Of a stretch of DNA of 64,000 nucleotides, positions 6,973 to 52,290 are shown one piece after another. The translations under genes and the position numbers were made by a program. This stretch comes from an uncultured Akkermansia sp. (GTDB taxonomy: Bacteria > Verrucomicrobiota > Verrucomicrobiia > Verrucomicrobiales > Akkermansiaceae), in assembly GCA_947624205.1 (NCBI GenBank), contig CANQJI010000001.1, positions 11,739 through 75,738 of the forward strand, written 5' to 3'. Within the stretch, counting starts at the first letter, position 1. Every line of letters begins with the position of its first letter. Below the pieces are notes generated by a model. The model did no database searches. It was not told the origin of the DNA and saw only the letters and a program-made list of their open reading frames with translations.

Positions 6973-7074
6973 AGTTTGATTGAGTTTCGCTGTGAAAAAT
7001 TTCCCGGGGATGCCCGGCGCGTGCGCATTATAGTCTATTCACAAGAAATGTCAAGATTGGGAAGAGAACCATTA

Positions 7075-7386
7075 GGGCAAAAGCATTAGAAAATGCGTCT
7101 GCCTATGTACGAGGTACAACACGCACGACGGTGGTAAGTGCGGATGGACAACGCGGATGCGTTGCCTCGCAGGGGCGAACCGCCGATGGGGCGGCGGTGA
7201 GTCAACTTTCGACGTACGATTTGGGGAGTTCCCGCGCTTGCGCGCGAATCTGGCGAACGAGAGGGGAGCTTCAGAGTCATCAGCATGATGACCGCTCGTT
7301 GTCATGATTTTTGATGCGTTTAAACAATAACATCAGTCAATAAGGGCATTCCTTTGTTGATTAACTTCTCCTCAAATGCGTTTGCC
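7075..7386 (+). repeat. Modular palindromic MITE-like element, copy 1
   Basis: Left hairpin GGGCAAAAGCATTAGAAAATGCGTCTGCC, TACGA heptads, the 87-nt double-hairpin module (7118-7204), the GAGTTCCCGCGCTTGCGCGCGAAT palindrome, and a right arm ending CTCAAATGCGTTTGCC. Confidence 0.85.
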
Positions 7387-7765
7387 TTGATCCCATGTAG
7401 TTCACGTGGCAGCTGAGCGCACGCAGATTTGTCGCCACATTGCCCGTACCTCCCGGCATCTTTTCTTGACGGGTAATCTCGAAAATCGGCACAGATGCTT
7501 CCGGGGAAATGCGCTCTCCCCGTCTTATTGTACGGGCGACAGGGTTTGAATATGCTTTTACTCTCGTGGTAAAAGCCGTTTTTCTCCTTACGAGAGCGCA
7601 ACATTCTGTGCTTATGGCGTGCTTTTATGATGTTCCCAATGCTTCCTTATCTATTGCCTGTATTTGCGATATAGATTTATGGTGCGCCCTTTTTGTCCGC
7701 ATGGGCATCACGGAGAACGAATTTTCGTTGTTTTTCGGAAAAGTTCCTGATAATATGAGCGGAGA

Positions 7766-8161: not shown

Positions 8162-8283
8162 CCGAACCTCCTTCTCGATGCGTCCACGCGTAACATACCT
8201 GATGGTGTTCCCGTCATGCGAAGATTTGAATCTTTCTCCTTTCGGTTCCCTCACTTTCTCGGAGCCTTTCATCAGTCCGGGAC

Positions 8284-8524
8284 AGGGCAAACGCATTAGG
8301 CAATGCGTTTGCCTATGTACGACGTACGATGTTGGATGTACGATTTATTAATAATGTGCGCGTTGCGCAGATTTTTTCGGATCATTAATGTATGCTGAGA
8401 TTCCTCTAGAGCCATCATCATGATGACTGCTGGTTGTCATGATTTTTGATGTGTATAAACATGGATATCAGTTAATAACGGCATTTTCTCTGTTGATTGG
8501 CTTCCCTCAAATGCGGTTACCCTA
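8284..8524 (+). repeat. MITE-like element, copy 2 (short subfamily), flanked by an 11-bp direct repeat
   Basis: Starts AGGGCAAACGCATTAGG and ends CAAATGCGGTTACCCTA. CAGTCCGGGAC is present at 8273-8283 and again at 8525-8535. Confidence 0.85.
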
Positions 8525-8694
8525 CAGTCCGGGACGCGAGCGTTGCTTCCGTCACGACAGTCTGATAAGATACAGCTTCACGGAGGCGCCTCGTGCCGTC
8601 CAGGATGCCATGCGAGGGCTGTAAGGCGCGATGACGTCGTATCCTGGTAATTTGTCTTTTCTCTTGGGGAAAGATGCTGTAGAATAGCGGCGTT

Positions 8695-14539: not shown

Positions 14540-14639
14540 GATGCGGGGGCAGGGCATGCGCGTTGTCCATCCGCATTTACCGCCGTCGTGCGTGTTGTAC
14601 ATCGTACATAGGCAAACGCATTTCCTAATGCGTTTGCCC
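14540..14639 (-). repeat. MITE-like element, copy 4 (partial, inverted)
   Basis: Contains the hairpin GGCAAACGCATTTCCTAATGCGTTTGCC, TCGTACA heptads and the first part of the 87-nt module (reverse complement AACACGCACGACGGCGGTAAATGCGGATGGACAACGCGCATGCC). Confidence 0.8.
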
Positions 14640-16505: not shown

Positions 16506-17003
16506 TCTGCTTTTTAACTAAAAAGATGTCGACGTTACTGAGAAATATAGCGATGACCTTAGCCATAGTATGGATGGCGGTGGTCGCAGTCTTACCCTTT
16601 TTTAACATAGATTTCCATACCTCCTTTGGAGTTTTTGCACTGTTCATGGCAGGGATGCTTTTCTTTGTTGTGATTAACTGGTCGGAGGTCTTGCCTCAAG
16701 TTGTCGATGACACTATTACGTTGTATGGGTTAAGCGTATTTTGGCTTATCGAAGTACAGAATCCACCAGATAAGACACCTATTTATTTGCAAGCTTTGAA
16801 TTGGGGGCTTTGGTACTGTATAATCTGCTTCTTAACTAAAAAGGTATCGACGTTACTGAGAAATATAGCAATAACCTTAGCCACAGTATGGATGGCTGCG
16901 GTCGCAGTCTTACCCTTTTTTAACATAGATTTTCATATCTTTGGAATATACTTTCAATTTTGCACACTGTTCATAGCAGGGATACTTTTCCTTGTGAATT
17001 GCA
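16452..17003 (+). repeat. Tandem duplication with a 317-bp period (about 1.7 copies)
   Basis: GATAAAACACCTATTCTGTTACAAACTTTGAATTGGGG... at 16452 recurs as GATAAGACACCTATTTATTTGCAAGCTTTGAATTGGGG... at 16769. Similarity continues through TTTTTTAACATAGATTT and ...CTGTTCAT.GCAGGGAT. Confidence 0.85.
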
Positions 17004-17023
17004 GGGAAAGGTGCACCAAATGA
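16526..17023 (+). CDS. Small membrane protein ORF spanning both copies of the 317-bp repeat (possible orphan immunity gene)
   Basis: The ATG at 16526 gives MSTLLRNIAMTLAIVWMAVVAVLPFF.... The second copy has GTA in place of ATG. The stop TGA overlaps the ATG at 17020. Confidence 0.35.
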   Translation: MSTLLRNIAMTLAIVWMAVVAVLPFFNIDFHTSFGVFALFMAGMLFFVVINWSEVLPQVVDDTITLYGLSVFWLIEVQNPPDKTPIYLQALNWGLWYCIICFLTKKVSTLLRNIAITLATVWMAAVAVLPFFNIDFHIFGIYFQFCTLFIAGILFLVNCRERCTK

Positions 17024-18468
17024 GAGATAGCGTGATGATCTACCTAAACCACAAAGCCAAGCGCGAGCTGCTCGCTGAGATGCTCTACAAGCGGCTCAAT
17101 GGTGCGGGGAATAAGGTGGAGGTGACGCGCCGCGGGTATGCGTACGATGCGCTGGGACGTCCGACTTCCCGCACGCAGGCGTACCCGCAGCAGAGCGTCA
17201 GCAGAGATGATTCCTTCGACTATAACAGACGCTCGGAACTCACCGGCGCGAAGCTCGGGGAGGCTCCTTATGCGTACTCCTACGACAACATCGGCAACCG
17301 CATCACGGCGCAGGAGGATGCGGAGCACATCACCTACGCGGCGAACAATCTGAACCAGTACACGCAGATTGACACGGACGGCACGGTGTTCGTTCCGGAG
17401 TACGATGAGGACGGCAACCAGACGCGCGTGCGGACGGGCACGGGCATCTGGAAGGTGCAGTACAATGGACAGAACCGCGCCATTCGTTACGAGTCTGAGG
17501 CGGATTCCACGCACATCATCACGTGCGTGTACGACTCGCAGGGACGCCGGGTGGAGAAGAAGGAGGAGAAAGAAGGCGCAGCCATCAGTCACGTGCGCTA
17601 TGTGTACCGGGGCTATCTGCAAGTAGCGGCCTACGATTTGCTCGCGGAGGGACTGCCCTCATTGTGGCAGATTATCTGGGATCCGACGCAGGAAATAGCC
17701 ACACGCCCGCTGGCCATACGAGCGGACGGGGCATATTCCACGTACGGTTGGGACTTGACGAAGAACATCTGCGAGACTTATGCCGGGGCCACGGGCTCCC
17801 TCATGCACCGCTACGCCTACTCCCCATACGGCTTAGTTTCTCTTGAAGGTGACACCTCTTACCAACCTCTCCAATGGAGCAGCGAGGTGTATGACGCTGA
17901 GCTTGGACTCGTTTACTACAACTACCGCTACTATAATCCCACCGATGGCAGACGGATAAATCGAGATATATTGTTCAGCATAAATCAAATTGCTCTATAT
18001 AATTATTTGTCTAATAATCCGATTTTAATGAAAGATATCTTGGGACTTAGTGCGGATGGTGTTTTAGAAGCCTTGGCAATATTAGAGAAAGAAATAAAAA
18101 AATTATCAGGCAGAGTGCTAGGCAATATACTAGAAGCCATCAATATAGGGCAGTCTGTTTACCAAGGCTTTGAAGCGTTGATGGATGTGCCCGAGTGCGT
18201 TAAGGATGAACGGAGCCTGGGTATTTGGATGGAAAAACGCAGACAATTAGCTAGAAGCTCCTTATCAAATTTTGTTAGTGCCGTACTAGTACTTGCAGCA
18301 ACATATCTCAGTGGAGGATGGGCGGCTCTTGCAGCTTCATTTGTGCTTGGCGAGATACGCGAATTTCTGGAATCTCTCGTAAGTGATGAATTCATAGATC
18401 GTATTATAAATGCTGTAAATGATGATGTACCGCCCGTGAAATGCGATTGCACATACGAAGTCAGCTAA
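17020..18468 (+). CDS. Orphan Rhs C-terminal cassette 1: partial YD-repeat core plus a variable C-terminal toxin domain
   Basis: YD repeats YAYDALGRPT, YSYDNIGNRIT and VYDSQGRRVEK. The core end is YYNYRYYNPTDGRRINRD...NNPILMKDILGL, followed by a unique ~150-aa tail with a hydrophobic segment FVSAVLVLAATYLSGGWAALAASFVLG. There is no N-terminal trafficking domain, and the start is uncertain. Confidence 0.75.
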   Translation: MRDSVMIYLNHKAKRELLAEMLYKRLNGAGNKVEVTRRGYAYDALGRPTSRTQAYPQQSVSRDDSFDYNRRSELTGAKLGEAPYAYSYDNIGNRITAQEDAEHITYAANNLNQYTQIDTDGTVFVPEYDEDGNQTRVRTGTGIWKVQYNGQNRAIRYESEADSTHIITCVYDSQGRRVEKKEEKEGAAISHVRYVYRGYLQVAAYDLLAEGLPSLWQIIWDPTQEIATRPLAIRADGAYSTYGWDLTKNICETYAGATGSLMHRYAYSPYGLVSLEGDTSYQPLQWSSEVYDAELGLVYYNYRYYNPTDGRRINRDILFSINQIALYNYLSNNPILMKDILGLSADGVLEALAILEKEIKKLSGRVLGNILEAINIGQSVYQGFEALMDVPECVKDERSLGIWMEKRRQLARSSLSNFVSAVLVLAATYLSGGWAALAASFVLGEIREFLESLVSDEFIDRIINAVNDDVPPVKCDCTYEVS

Positions 18469-28000: not shown

Positions 28001-28934
28001 GTGTTTAGGATAAAAATCACACAGGATGAATCCATGGTGAGTTTACCCTTTGCAGAATCCTTTTCGTCGATGAGCGCGGCAACCTCACGACTTCTTGGGT
28101 TGGAACACGAATATTGCGGAGCCCTCACCAATCAGCTAGCCACGCAGATCACCGATGCGAACGGTCGCCGCATCTACGCTTACGATCAGTACGGCTCTCT
28201 GAACTATGAGCGCAGTTTTTATGGGGATAACACCTTTGCGGTGAATGAGAAATGGGACAAGTTCGGACGCAGCGTCGGCTATCAGTCACGCAAGAGCGGC
28301 TCAACAATCACAGAGGTGAACATCGGCTATGCAGAGGATGGACGCATCGAATCGGCGAGCTTCCGGCACGGCGGGGCGGAGAGGAAATTCACGTACGGGT
28401 ATCTGGCGGGCAGCAATCTGCTGCAATCGCTCGCCATGCCCAATAAGGTGACGCTGACGCAGACGTGGGAGGAGAAGCGAGACCTGCATCGAAGAGATGC
28501 TCTACACGCGGCTCAATGATGCGGGGAAGAAGGTGGAGGTGACGCGCCGCGGGTATGCGTACGATGCGCTGGTACGTCCGACTGCCCGCACGCAGGCGTA
28601 CCCGCAGCAGAAGAGTTTGCGCGGGAGGATTCCCTCGACTATAACAAGACGCTCTGAAAGCGCCCGACGGCTGGCAGGGCGCTTGGACAAAAGCGCAACT
28701 TTTGCCCCGAAGGGGCGAGGCATCGATGGGGCGAAGCCGAGGCAACTCAACGGCGCTACAACTCGGGGAGGCTCCCTACGCGTACTCCTGCGACAACATC
28801 GGCAACCGCATCACGGCGCAGGAGGATGCGGAGAGTGTCACCTACGAGGCGAACAATTTGAACCAGTACACGCAGATTGACACGGAAGGCACGGCGTTTG
28901 TTTCGGAGTACGATGCGGATGGCAACCAGATGCG
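28001..28934 (+). pseudogene. Rhs/YD core fragment with frameshifts and one 87-nt palindromic-module insertion, truncated by an IS right-end remnant
   Basis: YD repeats (IYAYDQYGSL, FGRSVGYQ, YAEDGRIESA). A 1-nt indel follows LTQTWEEKRDL. The reading frame switches between the track ORFs 28001, 28497 and 28702. Confidence 0.8.
28658..28744 (+). repeat. 87-nt double-hairpin module inside the Rhs fragment
   Basis: AAGCGCCCGACGGCTGGCAGGGCGCTTGGACAAAAGCGCAACTTTTGCCCCGAAGGGGCGAGGCATCGATGGGGCGAAGCCGAGGCA lies between ...CGCTCTGA and ACTCAACGGCGC. This is the same host position as at 38.3 kb. Confidence 0.85.
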
Positions 28935-29092
28935 CTACTCCACTCGCTCCGCAGCGCCTACGCTACAAAATCGCGTCAAAAATGGATTGACATCCGAGGT
29001 GCCGGATGATATAGCAAAGATACACGCCTGATGTACGCAAAAAAAGGGGCTTAAATAAGCTTCCGGAGTGTCGAAAGATGGGCGCCAGTTTA
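28935..29092 (+). mobile_element. IS3-family right-end remnant (158 bp)
   Basis: CTACTCCACTCGCTCCGCAGCGCCTACGCTACAAAATCGCGTCAAAAATGGATTGACATCCGAGG...GGGGCTTAAATAAGCTTCC...GGGCGCCAGTTTA. Confidence 0.85.
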
Positions 29093-30119: not shown

Positions 30120-30157
30120 ATCGCAAAAACACATGCAATAGAGGATGAAAGAAGCCC

Positions 30158-30392
30158 AGGGCAAACGCATTAGAAAATGCGTTTGCCTATGTACGATGTT
30201 GGATGTACGATTTATTAATAATGTGCGCATTGCGCAGTTTTTTTCGAATCATTAACGCATGCAGAGGAGGTCTTAGAGCCATCATCGTGATGATCGTTTG
30301 TCGTCGTGATTCTTGATGCGTATAAAACGGTAATACCAGTCAATAAGAGTATTTCCTCTGTTGATTAACTTCTCCCCAAATGCCTTTGCTTT
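30158..30392 (+). repeat. MITE-like element, copy 6 (short subfamily, like copy 2)
   Basis: GGGCAAACGCATTAGAAAATGCGTTTGCC hairpin, heptads, TTATTAATAATGTGCGCATTGCGCAG, and a right arm ending CCCAAATGCCTTTGC. Confidence 0.85.
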
Positions 30393-30469
30393 GGGCGGGG
30401 CGTTGTCGTCGGTTGGACGGTATTCGACTCCGCTCCCGGATCTTTGCTCCGGCACATTGGCGCCGATGG

Positions 30470-31707: not shown

Positions 31708-31990
31708 TGGCAAACGAATTAGGAAATGCGTTTGTCTCTGTTACGACGTACGATGTTGGATGTACCGACGGTGGCGCCTGGCGGCGCCTATGTACGGGGT
31801 ACGAAGTACGATGTACGATTTGGATCATAGCGCGCGTTGCGCGGGGATGCGAAGAACGCTGGTTGTCATGATTTTTGATGCGTATCAACGATGGTATCGG
31901 TCAATAAGGGCATTCCTCTGTTGATTAACTTCTCCTCAAATGCGTTTGCCCTGGGAATTCGGTGGCTACGTCGCGAGTTTGGCGAAGCAG
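31708..31990 (+). repeat. MITE-like element, copy 7
   Basis: TGGCAAACGAATTAGGAAATGCGTTTGTC hairpin, heptads, GGCGCCTGGCGGCGCC palindrome, and a right arm ...TTGATTAACTTCTCCTCAAATGCGTTTGCCC. An extra GAATTCGGTGGCTACGTCGCGAGTTTGGCGAAG module lies beyond it. Confidence 0.85.
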
Positions 31991-37497: not shown

Positions 37498-38043
37498 ATG
37501 ATGAATAAGTTTATTTTCTCGATAGCGGTGATTCTTACTGCAATGCTTGGGCAGCAATGTTCACGGACTGACATAGAAGAGGAGCTTCCGCTACGTGATT
37601 TCCTGGAGGGGGGTGATAGGGTGATCTACATAGAGGGGAACATCTTTCTTGATATGTACGAAAAGGACGATCAGCTTAAACGCAAGCATGAACGCGCGAT
37701 TGGGATGCCGGTAGAAGAGAGGTATTATAGGTATAGGGAAGAAATAACGGGGGCACGATTGAAACAATTGAGGGAATTTCTTTTAGGTTACTCTTGCATA
37801 ACACGACGTGAAACACCGATTGAAAAAGAACAAATCATTCATATAGTAGACCGCTTTCGTCCCACTGATGGCAGCTATTTGAAATTGCTGATACCCGGGA
37901 AGAAGGGAAAAGAAGTAATTATATGGTTGGAAACAGAAGAAGAGGCTGAGAAGTTTTATATGACAGTAGGTCGGGAAGGTACGGCGAGAGATAGGCGTCA
38001 GTTACGTTTGATGAGGGAGCGGGAAAAAGGGAAAAAGCAGTGA
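37498..38043 (+). CDS. Secreted or membrane-anchored hypothetical protein (181 aa); paralog of 25395-25916
   Basis: MMNKFIFSIAVILTAMLGQQCS. Its upstream leader (AGTAGAAAGGATGTT.TTTTATGATGAATAAGTT) and its position next to an IS right end are also shared with the paralog. Confidence 0.6.
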   Translation: MMNKFIFSIAVILTAMLGQQCSRTDIEEELPLRDFLEGGDRVIYIEGNIFLDMYEKDDQLKRKHERAIGMPVEERYYRYREEITGARLKQLREFLLGYSCITRRETPIEKEQIIHIVDRFRPTDGSYLKLLIPGKKGKEVIIWLETEEEAEKFYMTVGREGTARDRRQLRLMREREKGKKQ

Positions 38044-38744
38044 CGAATATAGAGAGGTCTGTGAATTGCAGAACAAAAGCAACGGGTGAAGGACAGACTG
38101 AGATGCTTAACCCAAGCCACAAAGTCAGCCGCGACCTGCTTGCGGGCATGGATTATGTGCGTGGCAATGGTCTCATCACGCAACGCCAGTACAACTACGG
38201 TGCGCTTGGGAGACCGATGACGCGCGATACGCGCTACCCGAATAAGGCGATTCATCATGCTGATACCTTCGCTTACAACAAGAGGGGTGAAAGCCCACGA
38301 GGGCTCGGAGTGGGATTGGACAACGCGCAAGCGTTGTCCGCAGGGCGAACCTCCGATGGGGCGGTGGTGAGTCAAAGCGCCCGACGGCTGGCAGGGCGAT
38401 TGGACAAAAGCGCAGCTTTTACCCCGAAGGGGCGAAGCATCGATGGGGCGATGCTGAGTCAACTCACGGGTGCGCTACTTGATGAGAATGCCTACGCCTA
38501 TGCCTACGACAACATAGGCAACCGTGAAATCGCCCAGGAGGTAACTGAGGGCATTACCTATGCCGCCAACGACCTGAACCAGTATACGCGCATCAGCATG
38601 AATAGCGAATCTATGAGAAGAGGGAAGAAGTTGAGATCGAGTTCGGAAAATTCTAATCATGTGATAAAAAAACTGGTAGTTAAATGGGACTGCTCTTGCA
38701 TTCCTAAAAAGAGTGAAGGAAGTCTGAGTATTAGCAATTCATAA
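38040..38744 (+). pseudogene. Rhs core fragment carrying two tandem 87-nt modules in frame, with an unrelated short tail
   Basis: YNYGALGRPMTRDTRYP...FAYNKRG, then 58 inserted aa, then LTGALLDENAYAYAYDNIGNREIAQE..ITYAANDLNQYTRI. After this the Rhs similarity ends, and there is no core-end motif. Confidence 0.7.
38288..38461 (+). repeat. Two tandem 87-nt double-hairpin modules embedded in the Rhs fragment
   Basis: Unit 1 is ...GGATTGGACAACGCGCAAGCGTTGTCCGCAGGGCGAACCTCCGATGGGGCGGTGGTGAGTCA. Unit 2 (38375-38461) is AAGCGCCCGACGG...TTGGACAAAAGCGCAGCTTTTACCCCGAAGGGGCGAAGCATCGATGGGGCGATGCTGAGTCA. Confidence 0.85.
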
Positions 38745-38754
38745 TTCCGGAGAT

Positions 38755-39888
38755 ATGTTAATGATACACACCTCGAGAACGAAGTTATCACATGGATTGA
38801 TGTTGATAACGAGCATATTTTTCTGTTTCGCAGGTTGCACATCAGTAAAAGAGGCAAACTTTGAAATAAGAGAGTACAAAGAGGCATCCTTCAGGAGCTG
38901 GTTATTCTTCAAGGAAAGGGACACCTATTATTCGCCACCAGCAATAAACCGAGCCATTTTTTTGCGTCCTATGCCGGAGGAGGTCAAGAAAGAAATTGGT
39001 GGTGATACAAAAGCGATAAGGTGTTTTGGGGATAGATACTACGCCATACCCGGTCGAGAACCCGGCATCTGGTATCCCCCTAACGCATGGGTCGGCTATC
39101 AGGGCAATCTAACGAGCCGGAAACCAACGAATTATCCTTGGGAAACAGATACGTCCCAAGATATCAATCTCTTCATGGAAAAGCTTGATTTGAAAAAGTT
39201 TGCTAAATTGATTTACGGCAATCAGCTGGGTCGGATCTTTTTCATGAAGGGGGAAAGAGAGATAAGCTTTTATGCACGCCTTATAGTGGGATATGTTCCC
39301 CCAAGCGTGTATGTTCCTGCACGTCTTATAACGGAATCGGACTTAAATCTTTCGATGTTGATGAATAATATCGCTCTTCTCTTCCAACTTGAAAGGGACG
39401 GTTGGATTACTAAAACGGGGAGGGATTCGTGGCGATGGACAGCTCAGGCAAGGGCGTTGAAAAAGGGTGAACAATCCACCCTCTCAGATATGGATATGCA
39501 GACACGGAATTATTTCAAAGCCCTGACACTGATCAAGGATGGTAATGAGTCACTGCCGCCCATACCCTGTCGAATTATCAAAACGTGTGAGACGGTGGGT
39601 ATGATTGATGCTGAGGTACGACTTATGAGGAAAAATGAGGGTTGCAACATGGGCCCGATGCCAAAGAAAAGATATTTTACCGTGGATGAGGAGGTCGGGT
39701 ACTGTGTTTTATTGGGGGCAACCCTTCGCTTACAATCGGAGGGAAAGAAGCAGAGTTACGTCCAGTTGAGAGTTTTTGCAACGGACGGGGATATAAGAAG
39801 AACCCACGGCGTCAACTTGGAGAGAATCCTTCAGGAAGGAGGAATGCCCAAACGCATATGCCGCGTTATTTATGACAGGAAACGGTGA
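38755..39888 (+). CDS. Lipoprotein, paralog family A (377 aa)
   Basis: LMLITSIFFCFAGC has a lipobox. It is homologous to 34584-35774 over its full length. Confidence 0.65.
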   Translation: MLMIHTSRTKLSHGLMLITSIFFCFAGCTSVKEANFEIREYKEASFRSWLFFKERDTYYSPPAINRAIFLRPMPEEVKKEIGGDTKAIRCFGDRYYAIPGREPGIWYPPNAWVGYQGNLTSRKPTNYPWETDTSQDINLFMEKLDLKKFAKLIYGNQLGRIFFMKGEREISFYARLIVGYVPPSVYVPARLITESDLNLSMLMNNIALLFQLERDGWITKTGRDSWRWTAQARALKKGEQSTLSDMDMQTRNYFKALTLIKDGNESLPPIPCRIIKTCETVGMIDAEVRLMRKNEGCNMGPMPKKRYFTVDEEVGYCVLLGATLRLQSEGKKQSYVQLRVFATDGDIRRTHGVNLERILQEGGMPKRICRVIYDRKR

Positions 39889-40024
39889 GTGTAAATCGTA
39901 AGAATAGATGTAACAGTTGAAAGATAGACGGAGATGCTCAACTTAAGCCACAGAGCCAGGCGCGACCTGCTTACAAAGATATGTGTTGCCTTAGACCATA
40001 ACCATTGACTGATCTTTATACAGT

Positions 40025-49239: not shown

Positions 49240-49444
49240 TCTATGTTGTTGAACCGTATAAAATATTCTGAAATTCAGAAGTTTACAGAAATATTCATAC
49301 ATGTGCCAACGTCGTGAAAAAAAGGATTAGATTTTCCCTGCATACACGGAGATTGAACTGCCAAAAACGTGGAAGAAGGCGTCGAATCTTCCAGAAAGTG
49401 CGCAGGCGAAAACGATCAAACGAAGGCACGAGGAAGAGGAACAA

Positions 49445-49800
49445 GGCAAACGCATTTCTAATGCGTTTGCCTATGTACGATGTATGATTTTCGATGTACA
49501 ACACGCACGACGGCCCCGTAGAGGGCGCACGCGTTAGCGGGCGGCGGTGGCAGGCGGGGCCTGCCTATGTACGATGTGCGATTTACGATGTGCGATTTGG
49601 GGAGTTCCCGCGCTTGCGCGCGAATTCGGCGGACTACGGCGGGGCGTGGAATGCGGCGCTGAGGCTGGGAGTTCCCGCGCTTGCGCGCGAATTCGGCGGA
49701 GGGCATTTGTCGTCATGATTTATGATGTGTATCAACGATCATATCAGTCAACAAGAGCATTTCATCTGTTGATTAACTTCTCCTCAAACGCGTTTGCCCT
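49445..49800 (+). repeat. MITE-like element, copy 9
   Basis: GGCAAACGCATTTCTAATGCGTTTGCC hairpin, two heptad tracts, a variant GC-rich module (GGCAGGCGGGGCCTGCC), two copies of GGAGTTCCCGCGCTTGCGCGCGAATTCGGCGGA, and a right arm ending CTCAAACGCGTTTGCCC. Confidence 0.85.
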
Positions 49801-49883
49801 GGAGAACAATGCGGAAGTCGGCTGTGTTCTCATTTTGAATATCAAATCTTGCCATGCGCGCGTGTGCATGGTAGGATCCTCCT

Positions 49884-52055
49884 ATGAAACGGCTTCTCTG
49901 CTGCATGATGTTGCTTGTCGGTCTGTTGTCGGGCGCAGCTCCGGGACAGGAAGGGGACACGTCCTTTCGTGCCGCTGTTGAGGCAAGCGTAGGCAGTTTT
50001 ACCCCAGGACAGAGCTTCTACATCGCCATGCGTGGCGCGATCCCCGAGGGGCTGCATGCCTATTACCGCAATCCCGGCAGTGTCGGAGAAGCGGTATCGG
50101 CTCAGCTCCGGCTCCCGGAAGGTTTTTCGGCTGAGGGGCCGTTTTGGGAGGTTCCGCACAGGATGAGTTCGTCCGGCGGCAGTATCCTGGCGTACGGGTA
50201 TGAGAAAGAAGTGGTGGCCGTCTGGCGTGTGCAGGCTCCGCAGAATTATTCCGAGTCCGGCGCTGATTTCGTGATTGATGCCACGGCGCAGCTCTGTTCC
50301 GACGAGGGCTGTCTTCCTACGCAGGAGGTTGGCGCTTCCCTCCGGCTGTCACGCGGGGATGGCACTGCTTCTTCGGCGTGGAATCAGGTTGAGCAGCGGG
50401 TGGAGACGCTCGGCGACGTTTCTCTTTCGCAGCTCTCCGCTTCCCGAGGGACAGGCGGTGCGATCGATCTTCGCTTTACCTCTCCCGTCAATCAGCAGGA
50501 AGCGTATTTTTTCAGCGATGACAACAGCGTCGCTCCCGATGCTCCTCAGACTGTCCGCCGTGAGGGCGATGCGTGGCTCCTCTCCCTGCCGTGCAACGAT
50601 GGCAAGAATCTCCTCTATCCCGCCCCTGAGAGACGTCCGAAAACGATCAGCGGCAATCTCGTGTTTGCCGATGGGTCGCACGCACGCATTGTTGACCTGC
50701 CGATCGAGTGGAATAACGGCTCCCGGTGGGTTGTCCCCGCGGGGTTGTGGGGTGTTGTTGCCGGCCTCTTCCTCGGGGGATTTCTGCTGAACCTGATGCC
50801 CTGCGTGTTCCCCGTTCTTGGACTGAAAGTGATGGGGTTTGTCGAGCTAAGCGGTGGCAGTCGGGGCAAGGTGGTGGCGCATTCTCTGGCGTTCACGGTG
50901 GGGATTCTGGTAAGCTTCTGGGTGCTCGGGTTAATCCTCGTGGGGGTGAGCCAGGCGCAGGCTCTGTTATCTTCCCCGTGGCAGGATTGGGCGAGTATCC
51001 TCCTCTGGGGGGATGAGGGAGGCGCGGATCGCAGTTGGGCTTCGTGGATGGAGAATCAATGGGTGGTGTACGGGATCGTGGTGCTGCTGATGGTGCTCGG
51101 GCTCTGGATGTACGGGGTCTTTGAGTTCGGGGCCCGTGCCACGGGCATCGGCGGCGAATTACAGCGTCGCGGCGGTATGATTGGCAGCTTCCTGCAGGGT
51201 TTGCTCGTCACGGTGGTCGCTACCCCTTGCAGCGGACCCTTCCTCGGCGCCGCCATGGCTCCGGCGATGTCGATGCCGGGACTCTGGTTGCTCGTGGCGC
51301 TCAGCGCGATGGCTGTGGGGCTCGCCTTGCCGTATCTCGTGCTCGGCATCTTCCCCGGGTTAGTCGCTATTCTGCCGCGTCCGGGGGCGTGGATGGAATC
51401 CCTGCGCCAGGCTTTTTCCTTTTTCATGCTGGCAGCGGCGGCGTGGATGCTGGATGTGTACCTGACCTTCGTCGATGGCGGGGCAGGTGTGATGATCGGT
51501 CTCGTGGTGGTGGCAGCCGGCTGCTGGGTGTTCGGTCGTTGGTGTCCGCTGTGGCGCAGCCGGCTGAGTCGTTGGCTGGGTGGATTTGTCGCTCTCTGTC
51601 TCGTGGGTGCCGGGGTGTTCTGGTCAATGCCGCGGAACCAGGAGGAAAATGCCGCTGTCGATTGGGTTGATTGGTCGCCCGCCGCCATGGCGGAAGCGCT
51701 CGAGGATGGCTCTCCGGTTTTCGTGGATTTTACCGCCAAATGGTGCGCTACCTGCCAGGGGAATAAATTGGTGGCGTACTCTGACGAGGTCATGCAATTG
51801 TTGGAGGAGCGTGGAGTCGTGCTCATGCGGGCGGACAAAACCAAGCCCAACGCAAAAATCGATGCTGAGTTGCGGCGTCTCAATCGCAGTGCCGTGCCGA
51901 CAAATGCTCTCTACCTGCCGGGCAAAGAACCCATCGTCACGCGTGAGTTGCTCACCCCGGATTATCTGTTGGATTTCCTCCGGGAAAATCTCCCCTCTGA
52001 GGAAGGACAGAATGAGGATCCTGCGGATGATTCCAATACGGAGAATGACGGCTAG
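49884..52055 (+). CDS. dsbD: Thiol:disulfide interchange protein DsbD
   Basis: Signal peptide and an N-terminal periplasmic domain. The central TM domain carries LNLMPCVFPVL and VATPCSGPF, and the C-terminal thioredoxin fold carries FTAKWCATCQ. Confidence 0.93.
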   Translation: MKRLLCCMMLLVGLLSGAAPGQEGDTSFRAAVEASVGSFTPGQSFYIAMRGAIPEGLHAYYRNPGSVGEAVSAQLRLPEGFSAEGPFWEVPHRMSSSGGSILAYGYEKEVVAVWRVQAPQNYSESGADFVIDATAQLCSDEGCLPTQEVGASLRLSRGDGTASSAWNQVEQRVETLGDVSLSQLSASRGTGGAIDLRFTSPVNQQEAYFFSDDNSVAPDAPQTVRREGDAWLLSLPCNDGKNLLYPAPERRPKTISGNLVFADGSHARIVDLPIEWNNGSRWVVPAGLWGVVAGLFLGGFLLNLMPCVFPVLGLKVMGFVELSGGSRGKVVAHSLAFTVGILVSFWVLGLILVGVSQAQALLSSPWQDWASILLWGDEGGADRSWASWMENQWVVYGIVVLLMVLGLWMYGVFEFGARATGIGGELQRRGGMIGSFLQGLLVTVVATPCSGPFLGAAMAPAMSMPGLWLLVALSAMAVGLALPYLVLGIFPGLVAILPRPGAWMESLRQAFSFFMLAAAAWMLDVYLTFVDGGAGVMIGLVVVAAGCWVFGRWCPLWRSRLSRWLGGFVALCLVGAGVFWSMPRNQEENAAVDWVDWSPAAMAEALEDGSPVFVDFTAKWCATCQGNKLVAYSDEVMQLLEERGVVLMRADKTKPNAKIDAELRRLNRSAVPTNALYLPGKEPIVTRELLTPDYLLDFLRENLPSEEGQNEDPADDSNTENDG

Positions 52056-52290
52056 GGCCAACGCATTAGGAAATGCGTTGGCCTATGTACGATGGACGAT
52101 TTACGATGTACGATTTGAATTATAGCGCGCCAGAGGCGCGGGAATTTGGCAGAGCAAGTGCGGATGGACAACGCGCATGCGTTGCCCCGACAGGGGCGAA
52201 CCGGCAGTGTGGTGCTGGTGAGTCAATTTGGAAAGTTCGCGCGCCTGCGGCGCGGGCGCGCGTAGCAAACGCGGGAGCTGAAATCGTGAA
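52054..52290 (+). repeat. MITE-like element, copy 10 (left part only; no recognisable right arm)
   Basis: AGGGCCAACGCATTAGGAAATGCGTTGGCC hairpin with compensatory A-to-C and T-to-G changes, four heptads, the GCGCGCCAGAGGCGCGGG palindrome, and a variant 87-nt module ending GGTGAGTCAA. The dsbD TAG stop overlaps its first bases. Confidence 0.8.

Follow-up and report, generated by a model that had tools for sequence, protein, structure and literature searches.

The insert at 38 kb and its Rhs host

We have analyzed short multi-hairpin repeats that lie in frame within Rhs toxin gene fragments of an uncultured Akkermansia sp. The DNA examined, here called the window, is a stretch of 64,000 nucleotides from contig CANQJI010000001.1. 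The repeats, or units, are a previously undescribed family of 84-87-nt multi-hairpin elements from a clade of uncultured Akkermansia, mostly of the rabbit gut. Two of them, units a and b, are arranged head to tail near 38 kb in a 234-amino acid (aa) open reading frame (ORF) that contains no stop across the insert (Table 1). Alignment to two uninterrupted Rhs cassettes places 171 nt (57 codons) of extra DNA between ...FAYNKRGE and LTGALLDE.... An earlier interpretation, made by a model from the letters alone (the sequence-only reading), had described two 87-nt modules, 174 nt in all, that interrupt the Rhs sequence and keep its ORF open. The read-through of the ORF bears this out and both units are multiples of three, but the true insert is 171 nt (84 + 87); the larger figure arose because the host GAA (Glu) codon had been counted in, and the coordinates were off by 1-4 nt. 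The alignment likewise confirmed that the cassettes near 17.2 and 20.1 kb are uninterrupted. The predicted host/unit junction peptide in the 38-kb ORF is ...NKRGE-SPRGLGVGLDNAQAL..., and that in another Rhs context is ...RENESTTQ-SPRGIGGGLDNAEALPEGR.... An antisense ORF that spans the units (37998-38462) was rejected as spurious read-through of the repeats.

The toxin whose last 44 aa end the 38-kb ORF is intact in one of the fetched comparison loci, L043, where the counterpart of the window ORF is an intact 738-aa Rhs toxin cassette. Window positions 38610-39896, comprising the toxin end and the downstream gene, are 94% identical to L043:1844-3130, and the 377-aa gene that follows the ORF (38755-39888) lies within this match. 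The ORF is therefore read as an internal-deletion remnant of an L043-like cassette. At its insertion site, S1, the flank is complementary to the 3' end of the unit, as GTGAG-TCAA-CTCAC in the window (38367-38372 and 38462-38467) and as GTCAA/TTGAC in L084 (3553-3566). This complementarity occurs in two different registers and is absent from the other sites; it may be a coincidence or may contribute to S1 as a hot spot.

Table 1. Units, empty sites and Rhs hosts in the window, with the Rhs insertion sites (a slash marks the junction)
Feature	Position	Strand	Description
Unit a	38292-38375	+	84 nt, 28 codons, encodes SPRGLGVGLDNAQALSAGRTSDGAVVSQ; multi-hairpin repeat after GAA (Glu) of YNKRGE/LTGA
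Unit b	38376-38462	+	87 nt, 29 codons, encodes SARRLAGRLDKSAAFTPKGRSIDGAMLSQ; head to tail with unit a
Host ORF	38040-38744	+	234-aa Rhs remnant; core residues ~212-324 joined to the last 44 aa of a toxin (tblastn map)
Empty site, Rhs cassette 1	17230-17246	+	CGCTCGGAA/CTCACCGG, junction between 17238 and 17239
Empty site, Rhs cassette 2	20099-20115	+	CGCTCGGAA/CTCACCGG, junction between 20107 and 20108
Single b-type unit	28659-28745	+	87 nt, at the S1 codon boundary of a second, diverged Rhs fragment
Host Rhs fragment	28067-28983	+	frameshifted, frames 2 to 3 to 1; pseudogene
Intergenic family member	7120-7205	+	86 nt, TAA in first-hairpin loop; embedded in composite repeat
Intergenic family member	26534-26618	+	85 nt
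Intergenic family member	52148-52226	+	5'-truncated
Partial copy (5' half)	14546-14597	-	intergenic; only minus-strand copy in the window
Site S1			YNxRSE/LTGA; the site described in the sequence-only reading
Site S2			...Q/PIQWSSE, just before the conserved core-end motif
Site S3			GTAIQ/PALFGYDD
Site S4			SYSED/LGRP
Site S5			WDPTQ/PVATRPLAI

The second Rhs fragment, near 28 kb, carries its single unit after ...CTGAA and before CTCA..., so that the 87-nt module reported there from the letters alone does occupy the matching host position. It is identical to unit b at 80 of 87 positions (92%), and the two b units of the window have a 23-mer in common, for which the number of matches expected by chance is 0. 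The Rhs flanks of the two copies are 61-64% identical (150 nt each side). Because the identity of the modules is far above that of the flanks, the two copies are not one inherited event. The b units found at S1 in L011 and at S2 in L035 are 97.7% identical. On sequence comparison, the b-unit identities point to repeated insertion at preferred sites, or to short-patch transfer, and not to inheritance with the host fragment. The window fragments are thus not duplicates of one insertion standing without other intragenic cases, the outcome that the sequence-only reading had named as fatal to its claim. It had also called both hosts apparent pseudogenes, and both are degenerate, the 28-kb fragment by frameshifts and the 38-kb ORF as a core-toxin remnant. 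Since both hosts are decayed cassette remnants, the window copies are regarded as fossils of the process.

An IS3-family (rve integrase) transposase ORF lies at 21362-22375, with decayed fragments near 25.1, 26.3 and 37.1 kb (repeat families D2, D18 and D20). This ORF and the degenerate fragments are interspersed among the Rhs fragments of the window, which suggests that the Rhs array was broken up by insertion sequence (IS) activity. Just upstream of the 28-kb Rhs fragment there is a tandem duplication (26987-27901) with a 615-bp period, 92% identity and two 132-aa ORFs.

Anatomy and distribution of the repeat units

The anatomy, pairing and covariation of the units were derived from an alignment of 78 unique copies, 21 Rhs-borne and 57 intergenic. 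Each unit comprises short hairpins, three or four in number. It starts at its 5' end with a conserved A(G/A/C)C and closes at its 3' end with GAGTCAA or GAAGCAA, likewise conserved. In between, the first hairpin has a stem that covaries and a conserved loop, GACGGCTG.AAG; the second takes forms such as AAAAGC/GCTTTT, AACGC/GCGTT and AGCGC/GCGCT; a short stem of CCC(C)/GGG(G) follows; and the third hairpin has the conserved loop GATGGGG. The specified stems pair in 96.8% of cells, versus 37-47% in controls with the partners displaced by one to three columns. Changes on both sides (compensatory changes) occur at 11 of the 16 pairs, and the observed covariation score was reached by 0 of 500 shuffles. 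For two of the three units in the window, single-sequence folding was no significant improvement on shuffles (z = -0.8 and -0.85); folding energy was therefore dropped as evidence of structure, and covariation was used instead. The label 'palindromic' given to the modules by the sequence-only reading stands to this extent, that hairpins are evident from covariation across the 78 copies but not from the folding of two of the three window units singly. Terminal inverted repeats were not found: an inverted-repeat scan gave internal hairpins only, and AGCSCC... and ...GAGTCAA, with which the unit begins and ends, do not complement each other.

Intergenic DNA of the window repeats the unit's 3' half at three positions, and a partial copy of the 5' half lies at a fourth (Table 1). 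A degenerate 29-nt tail pattern matched 96 DNA stretches among 185,579 species-representative genomes. Among the matches listed, most contigs came from about a dozen uncultured Akkermansia metagenome-assembled genomes (MAGs), mostly from rabbit gut ('Lapin'); the unit was absent from the other matches except L008, a contig of an Acutalibacteraceae MAG, where it matches a unit of an Akkermansia MAG. On this distribution the window belongs to the same Akkermansia clade. An nhmmer profile identified 214 copies in the window and the fetched loci. There was no Rfam family match anywhere in the window, and the papers searched contained no account of repeats of this kind, whether in Akkermansia or within Rhs genes. 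A b-type 22-mer searched in JGI metagenomes gave six chance matches, none with module or Rhs homology.

The distribution bears on whether the repeat or the protein segment came first. If the segment were a genuine variable loop of Rhs proteins, with the intergenic copies as debris of Rhs decay or recombination, the conservation of the peptide within each subtype and its constant position between beta-strands would be understandable. The intergenic copies, however, are about three times commoner than those in Rhs genes and have the better hairpins (98.8% of stem cells paired versus 91.5%), they form oriented tandem and nested arrays within unrelated composite repeats beside housekeeping genes, and they include stop codons and lengths not divisible by three. 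Moreover, stem covariation reflects a constraint on nucleic acid and not on protein, and the segment is absent at every site in most Rhs homologues. An origin in the protein is for these reasons very improbable. An intein, intron or diversity-generating retroelement type of origin was dropped: units of this size are too small for it, the relevant motifs are lacking, and most copies lie outside genes.

Other intergenic repeat modules of the window form a mosaic downstream of genes (7063-7390, 8273-8526, 26337-26804, 30147-30394, 31785-31954, 49431-49802 and 52043-52151). Its parts are a hairpin, GGGCAAACGCATTAG.AAATGCGTTTGCC, a run of GTACGAT(G/T) 8-mers, TTATTAATAATGTGCGCGTTGCGCAG or GGGGAGTTCCCGCGCTTGCGCGCGAAT blocks, and a TCATCA..GATGAC...GTCATGATTTTTGATG block; the GTACGAT run is where the 84-87-nt units insert. 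In its overall organisation this mosaic resembles bacterial interspersed mosaic elements (BIMEs). At 49497-49570 the head of an intergenic unit (GTACAA/CACGCACGACGG) is followed by a different GC-rich body, which may be another subfamily or a chimeric element.

Insertions in Rhs cassettes of related genomes

Rhs homology was mapped by tblastn, independently of ORF calls. Units are inserted in Rhs genes at no fewer than five distinct sites, at least S1 to S5 of Table 1, and all of the Rhs-borne units are sense-oriented. At S1 to S3 the CAA or GAA of the host coincides with a codon, and reading of the unit is in frame 1, as it is for the S5 peptide; the phase differs at S4, where the unit is read in frame 3 and the loop TAA is consequently avoided. 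Many loci have units associated with Rhs sequence, and in nearly all of them the insertion is spanned by a single in-frame high-scoring segment pair, the exceptions being two frameshifted fragments. At S2 the copies of six loci are almost identical. Some hosts are open ORFs of about 560-1000 codons that end in C-terminal toxin tips of diverse kinds and have genes downstream, among them loci L043, L024, L094, L084, L011, L035, L046 and L096 and proteins P0020, P0084, P0067, P0094 and P0105. Thus the intragenic copies in related Akkermansia are not confined to obvious pseudogenes. The hosts fit the Rhs or YD-repeat polymorphic toxins: PF05593 was found on window ORF 16960-18468, PF05593 and PF25023 on homologues, and the core-end motif ...QWSSE..D.E.GL.YYNYRYYNP.DGRW..RD and variable C-terminal tips are visible in the host translations.

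Outside Rhs genes no convincing intragenic copy was found. Every ORF that spans such units, on either strand, translates as repeat-array junk, and in one case the real gene begins downstream of the units. A search for non-Rhs hosts with a profile of the 58-aa dimer gave four short matches only; it missed the window's own protein and is hence uninformative.

An AlphaFold2 model was made of P0084 (607 aa, 91 homologues), which at S1 carries unit b with a nested unit and at S2 a unit of the a type. The YD repeats are modelled as confident beta-hairpins, and the inserts (residues ~63-120 and 329-357) have a predicted local distance difference test score (pLDDT) <50. The sequence-only reading had proposed to model whether the insert maps to a surface loop of the YD shell; in this model the inserts are low-confidence excursions between confident strands, which could face outward or into the shell. 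Site S1 itself we take, from its sequence and from general knowledge of YD repeats, to lie within the YDxxGxL turn of a repeat.

Repeats can induce misjoins in metagenome assemblies, and such misjoins might have made the apparent intragenic copies. The comparison data are indeed mostly short-read MAG or metagenome contigs, and the junctions of S1 to S2 at L046:3140 and in L051 could be collapses over identical units. Nevertheless, the insertions recur in independent assemblies and samples (P0003, for example, on 13 contigs), the S2 insert is found in several different MAGs, insertions are present in the window too, and the junctions are nucleotide-precise relative to the empty sites. We regard an assembly artefact as barely credible.

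Insertion rules and mobility

Filled and empty sites both exist in Rhs genes and in intergenic composite repeats. The latter consist of a hairpin and GTACGAT tandem repeats, and the exact boundaries and any duplication are ambiguous there, because the flanks are themselves tandem GTACGAT repeats. Among close relatives of the window ORF, S1 may be empty (0) or hold a, b, a+b, b(c) or a+b(c), where c is a third unit nested in unit b after GGG(T/C)GAA, adding exactly 87 nt. The same kind of nesting is found in intergenic copies. NNAA, mainly TGAA, TCAA, ACAA or CGAA, precedes 78 of the 78 unique copies; all 33 abutting pairs share one orientation, and 23 nested insertions lie at one internal point. 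GC skew is positive across the window (1-64000; +0.05 to +0.19), and all of its full-length units are on this G-rich strand. New copies lie directly 3' of a brief N(C/G)AA motif and in a single orientation. Head-to-tail arrays result because the TCAA with which a unit ends is a target in its own right, and nested copies because GGG(C/T)GAA inside the unit is another.

As insertion appears strand-specific and hairpin-dependent, a single-strand transposase of the HUH/Y1 class is suggested. Mobilisation in trans by such an enzyme, of the type associated with repetitive extragenic palindromes (REPs), the REP-associated tyrosine transposases (RAYTs), or of the IS200/IS605 type, is put forward as a tentative possibility. 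The absence of terminal inverted repeats, the hairpins near both ends, the strict strand specificity and the TCAA right end speak for it. Against it stands a geometry unlike that of IS608, together with observations that also weigh against the wider explanation developed below. The filled and empty sites fit either insertion 3' of NNAA of an element ending in ..CAA or a 2-bp AA target duplication, as made by a DDE enzyme. In a weak test by tblastn over ~0.7 Mb of fetched loci, no match to IS200 TnpA or RAYT was obtained below E = 0.8. The agreement of intergenic orientation with GC skew is moderate only (59 agree and 26 disagree, at strong-skew loci).

Length, reading frame and selection

Among unique copies, the length is divisible by three in 20 of 21 Rhs-borne units (84 or 87 nt), versus 23 of the 57 intergenic ones (Fisher, 7e-6), as the sequence-only reading had anticipated for intragenic modules. 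Intergenic lengths of 84, 85, 86 and 87 nt are all common. The contrast is sharper when the units must also be free of stops in frame 1: 19 of 21 Rhs-borne versus 4 of 57 intergenic copies (Fisher, 2e-12). The loop of the first hairpin mostly holds an in-frame TAA in intergenic copies (CTGTAAG), and there the Rhs copies have TGGCAG, TGGAAG or TCGGAG. Selection for frame preservation can be measured here because the intergenic copies, with their random length phase and their stops, serve as an internal control; the signal is unusually clean. From the frame-preserving pattern we infer that selection keeps the Rhs frame open. Purifying selection on this frame would imply translation of the cassettes, or their recombination into a gene that is expressed. 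Since all hosts are C-terminal cassettes and not demonstrably full-length genes, tolerance at the protein level is deduced from the signature of selection.

Sequence comparison thus leads us to the following explanation, which as a whole we consider probable. A mobile non-coding hairpin repeat, mostly intergenic, has repeatedly entered Rhs cassettes at several (C/G)AA sites. Within Rhs genes, essentially only those variants persist whose length is divisible by three and whose reading frame has lost the loop stop codon, and the unit would form, in the YD shell, a loop of 28-29 residues rich in Gly, Ala and Arg that lies between beta-strands.

Besides the points on mobility given above, several others weigh against this explanation. 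The Fisher p-values are overstated, because many of the Rhs copies represent one event inherited or recombined among paralogues. The separate insertions are estimated at 8-10 (a and b at S1; a' and b at S2; two units at S3; S4; S5; and nested c); 8 of 8 events divisible by three would still be unlikely (~0.4^8), because only ~40% of the source pool has such a length. The b subtype was seen only in Rhs genes and not in intergenic DNA, which could mean that it spread by cassette recombination and not by transposition. The poorer pairing of the Rhs copies fits older or immobilised copies under coding constraint, and on this account they may no longer be mobile. The sampled loci are those that matched the tail search pattern, and the comparison data are mostly short-read MAG contigs. 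Finally, every module-bearing host is a C-terminal cassette of ~150-1000 aa that is preceded by small genes and starts at recurrent homologous points (MARLH... or M...KVISTDPSG...); these cassettes are probably orphans. Full-length Akkermansia Rhs proteins have been reported as 1500 aa or more. The sequence-only reading had asked whether any full-length rhs gene carries the insertion, and among the sampled loci no Rhs gene of at least 1500 aa with a unit was found: all hosts start at cassette boundaries, the longest products being 987-994 aa (P0067 and P0094) and the longest stop-to-stop frame ~1010 codons (L096).

The last point also favors a neutral account, in which the units are passengers in silent cassettes and stop-poor founders of 84 or 87 nt were spread by homologous recombination, with no need for tolerance by the protein. 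Both window hosts are remnants, the S2 copies hardly differ among their six loci, the b subtype is missing from intergenic DNA and the hairpins of Rhs copies show some decay, all of which such an account would accommodate. It would, however, require at least 8 separate events, every one of them divisible by three, from an intergenic pool of which 60% is not. The loop stop has been lost differently in different subtypes (GCA, GAA and CGG), and S4 avoids it by the use of frame 3. Hosts remain open for ~560-1000 codons up to intact-looking toxin tips, with downstream genes present, and tblastn, which is blind to frame, would reveal frameshifted hosts, of which only two were seen. Neutral passage is accordingly judged unlikely, and frame-keeping selection on a mobile repeat is preferred.

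The units might further act as portable hot spots of recombination and insertion, and so drive Rhs cassette shuffling and the diversification of toxins. Because every unit is divisible by three, recombination between S1 and S2 units, or a site-specific activity of the mobilising enzyme, could delete, swap or re-join cores and tips in frame. At L046:3140-3227 and L051:1498-1786 a unit joins the upstream flank of S1 (..YNERS) to the downstream flank of S2 (PIQWSSE..). The bridged ORFs lack ~230 core residues and are open into the toxin domain, and they could be products of unit-mediated in-frame deletion or of assembly collapse. These bridges, the near identity of b units at S1 and S2, and the polymorphism of unit content at S1 are hints in favor of a hot-spot role, which we nonetheless hold to be doubtful. 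If true, it would mean that the units contribute mechanistically to the 'rearrangement hot spot' behaviour of these genes and to toxin diversification in Akkermansia. Rhs polymorphic toxins have been implicated in strain competition in Akkermansia; the inserts add loops of 28-29 residues to them and may influence cassette recombination. On the practical side, the units will cause trouble in Akkermansia MAGs for gene calling, for short-read assembly and for the typing of Rhs genes.

Comparison with known repeat systems

The closest parallel is with the Rickettsia palindromic elements (RPEs; Ogata et al. 2000, as summarised in PMC10969869), small palindromic repeats that occur both between genes and in frame within them. 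The Akkermansia units share this double location with the ORF kept open. According to the same summary, RPEs too are small and non-autonomous, and the peptide that they add is apparently tolerated structurally. For RPEs, according to that account, the mobilising enzyme is not known, and for the units described here none was found in the ~0.7 Mb of fetched loci. The view of the sequence-only reading, that this is an RPE-like but unrelated case of in-frame palindromic insertion, is supported by the combination of intergenic and in-frame intragenic copies, by the bias of length and by the several Rhs sites. There are clear differences. The units measure 84-87 nt, versus about 100-150 nt for RPEs, and are built of several short covarying hairpins; they occur in a host of the phylum Verrucomicrobiota; they have strictly a single orientation and form head-to-tail and nested arrays; and their intragenic copies are found only in Rhs toxin cassettes and not in diverse housekeeping genes. 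Given the Akkermansia host, homology to RPEs is unlikely, and the resemblance would be functional only. Colonisation of genes in frame by palindromic selfish DNA has so far been essentially a Rickettsia phenomenon, and the units would provide an independent case in another phylum, in a genus of gut symbionts that now attracts much interest.

With REP and BIME sequences, RAYT-associated repeats, IS200/IS605 elements and palindrome-associated transposable elements (PATEs), the units share hairpins without terminal inverted repeats and the formation of mosaic arrays together with different modules between genes. Further similarities are that insertion is strand-specific and 3' of a short motif, and that orientation is moderately biased with GC skew. 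In IS608 the right cleavage site is TCAA and insertion is 3' of a tetranucleotide; the right end of the unit is likewise TCAA, but its left junction is ~2 nt from the foot of the first hairpin, versus 19 nt in IS608. In the 78-copy alignment the units lack the GTAG/CGTC head of REPs and REPINs. Set beside a PATE-like element, the units have hairpins near both ends, strict orientation and a 5' NNAA, but the target is degenerate and the geometry departs from that of IS608. Membership in the REP/RAYT or IS200/IS605 groups is not established.

[quoted passage not shown] Intragenic ERIC, Coxiella QMITE1 and Anabaena MITEs are further cases in the account of PMC10969869. The units resemble classical MITEs, as these are portrayed there, in that they are small and of high copy number, show presence/absence polymorphism and at times form translational fusions; they differ in having no terminal inverted repeats, one orientation only and no identified parent IS. 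A last comparison is with PARCELs, which are mainly protein-coding and specify 25-residue amphipathic domains of membrane proteins. Both show dyad symmetry in their coding repeats, which stand in tandem within ORFs, but the Akkermansia units are mainly intergenic, contain stop codons outside Rhs genes and covary as nucleic acid. They are a new family showing a known kind of phenomenon, and not a coding repeat of the PARCEL type.

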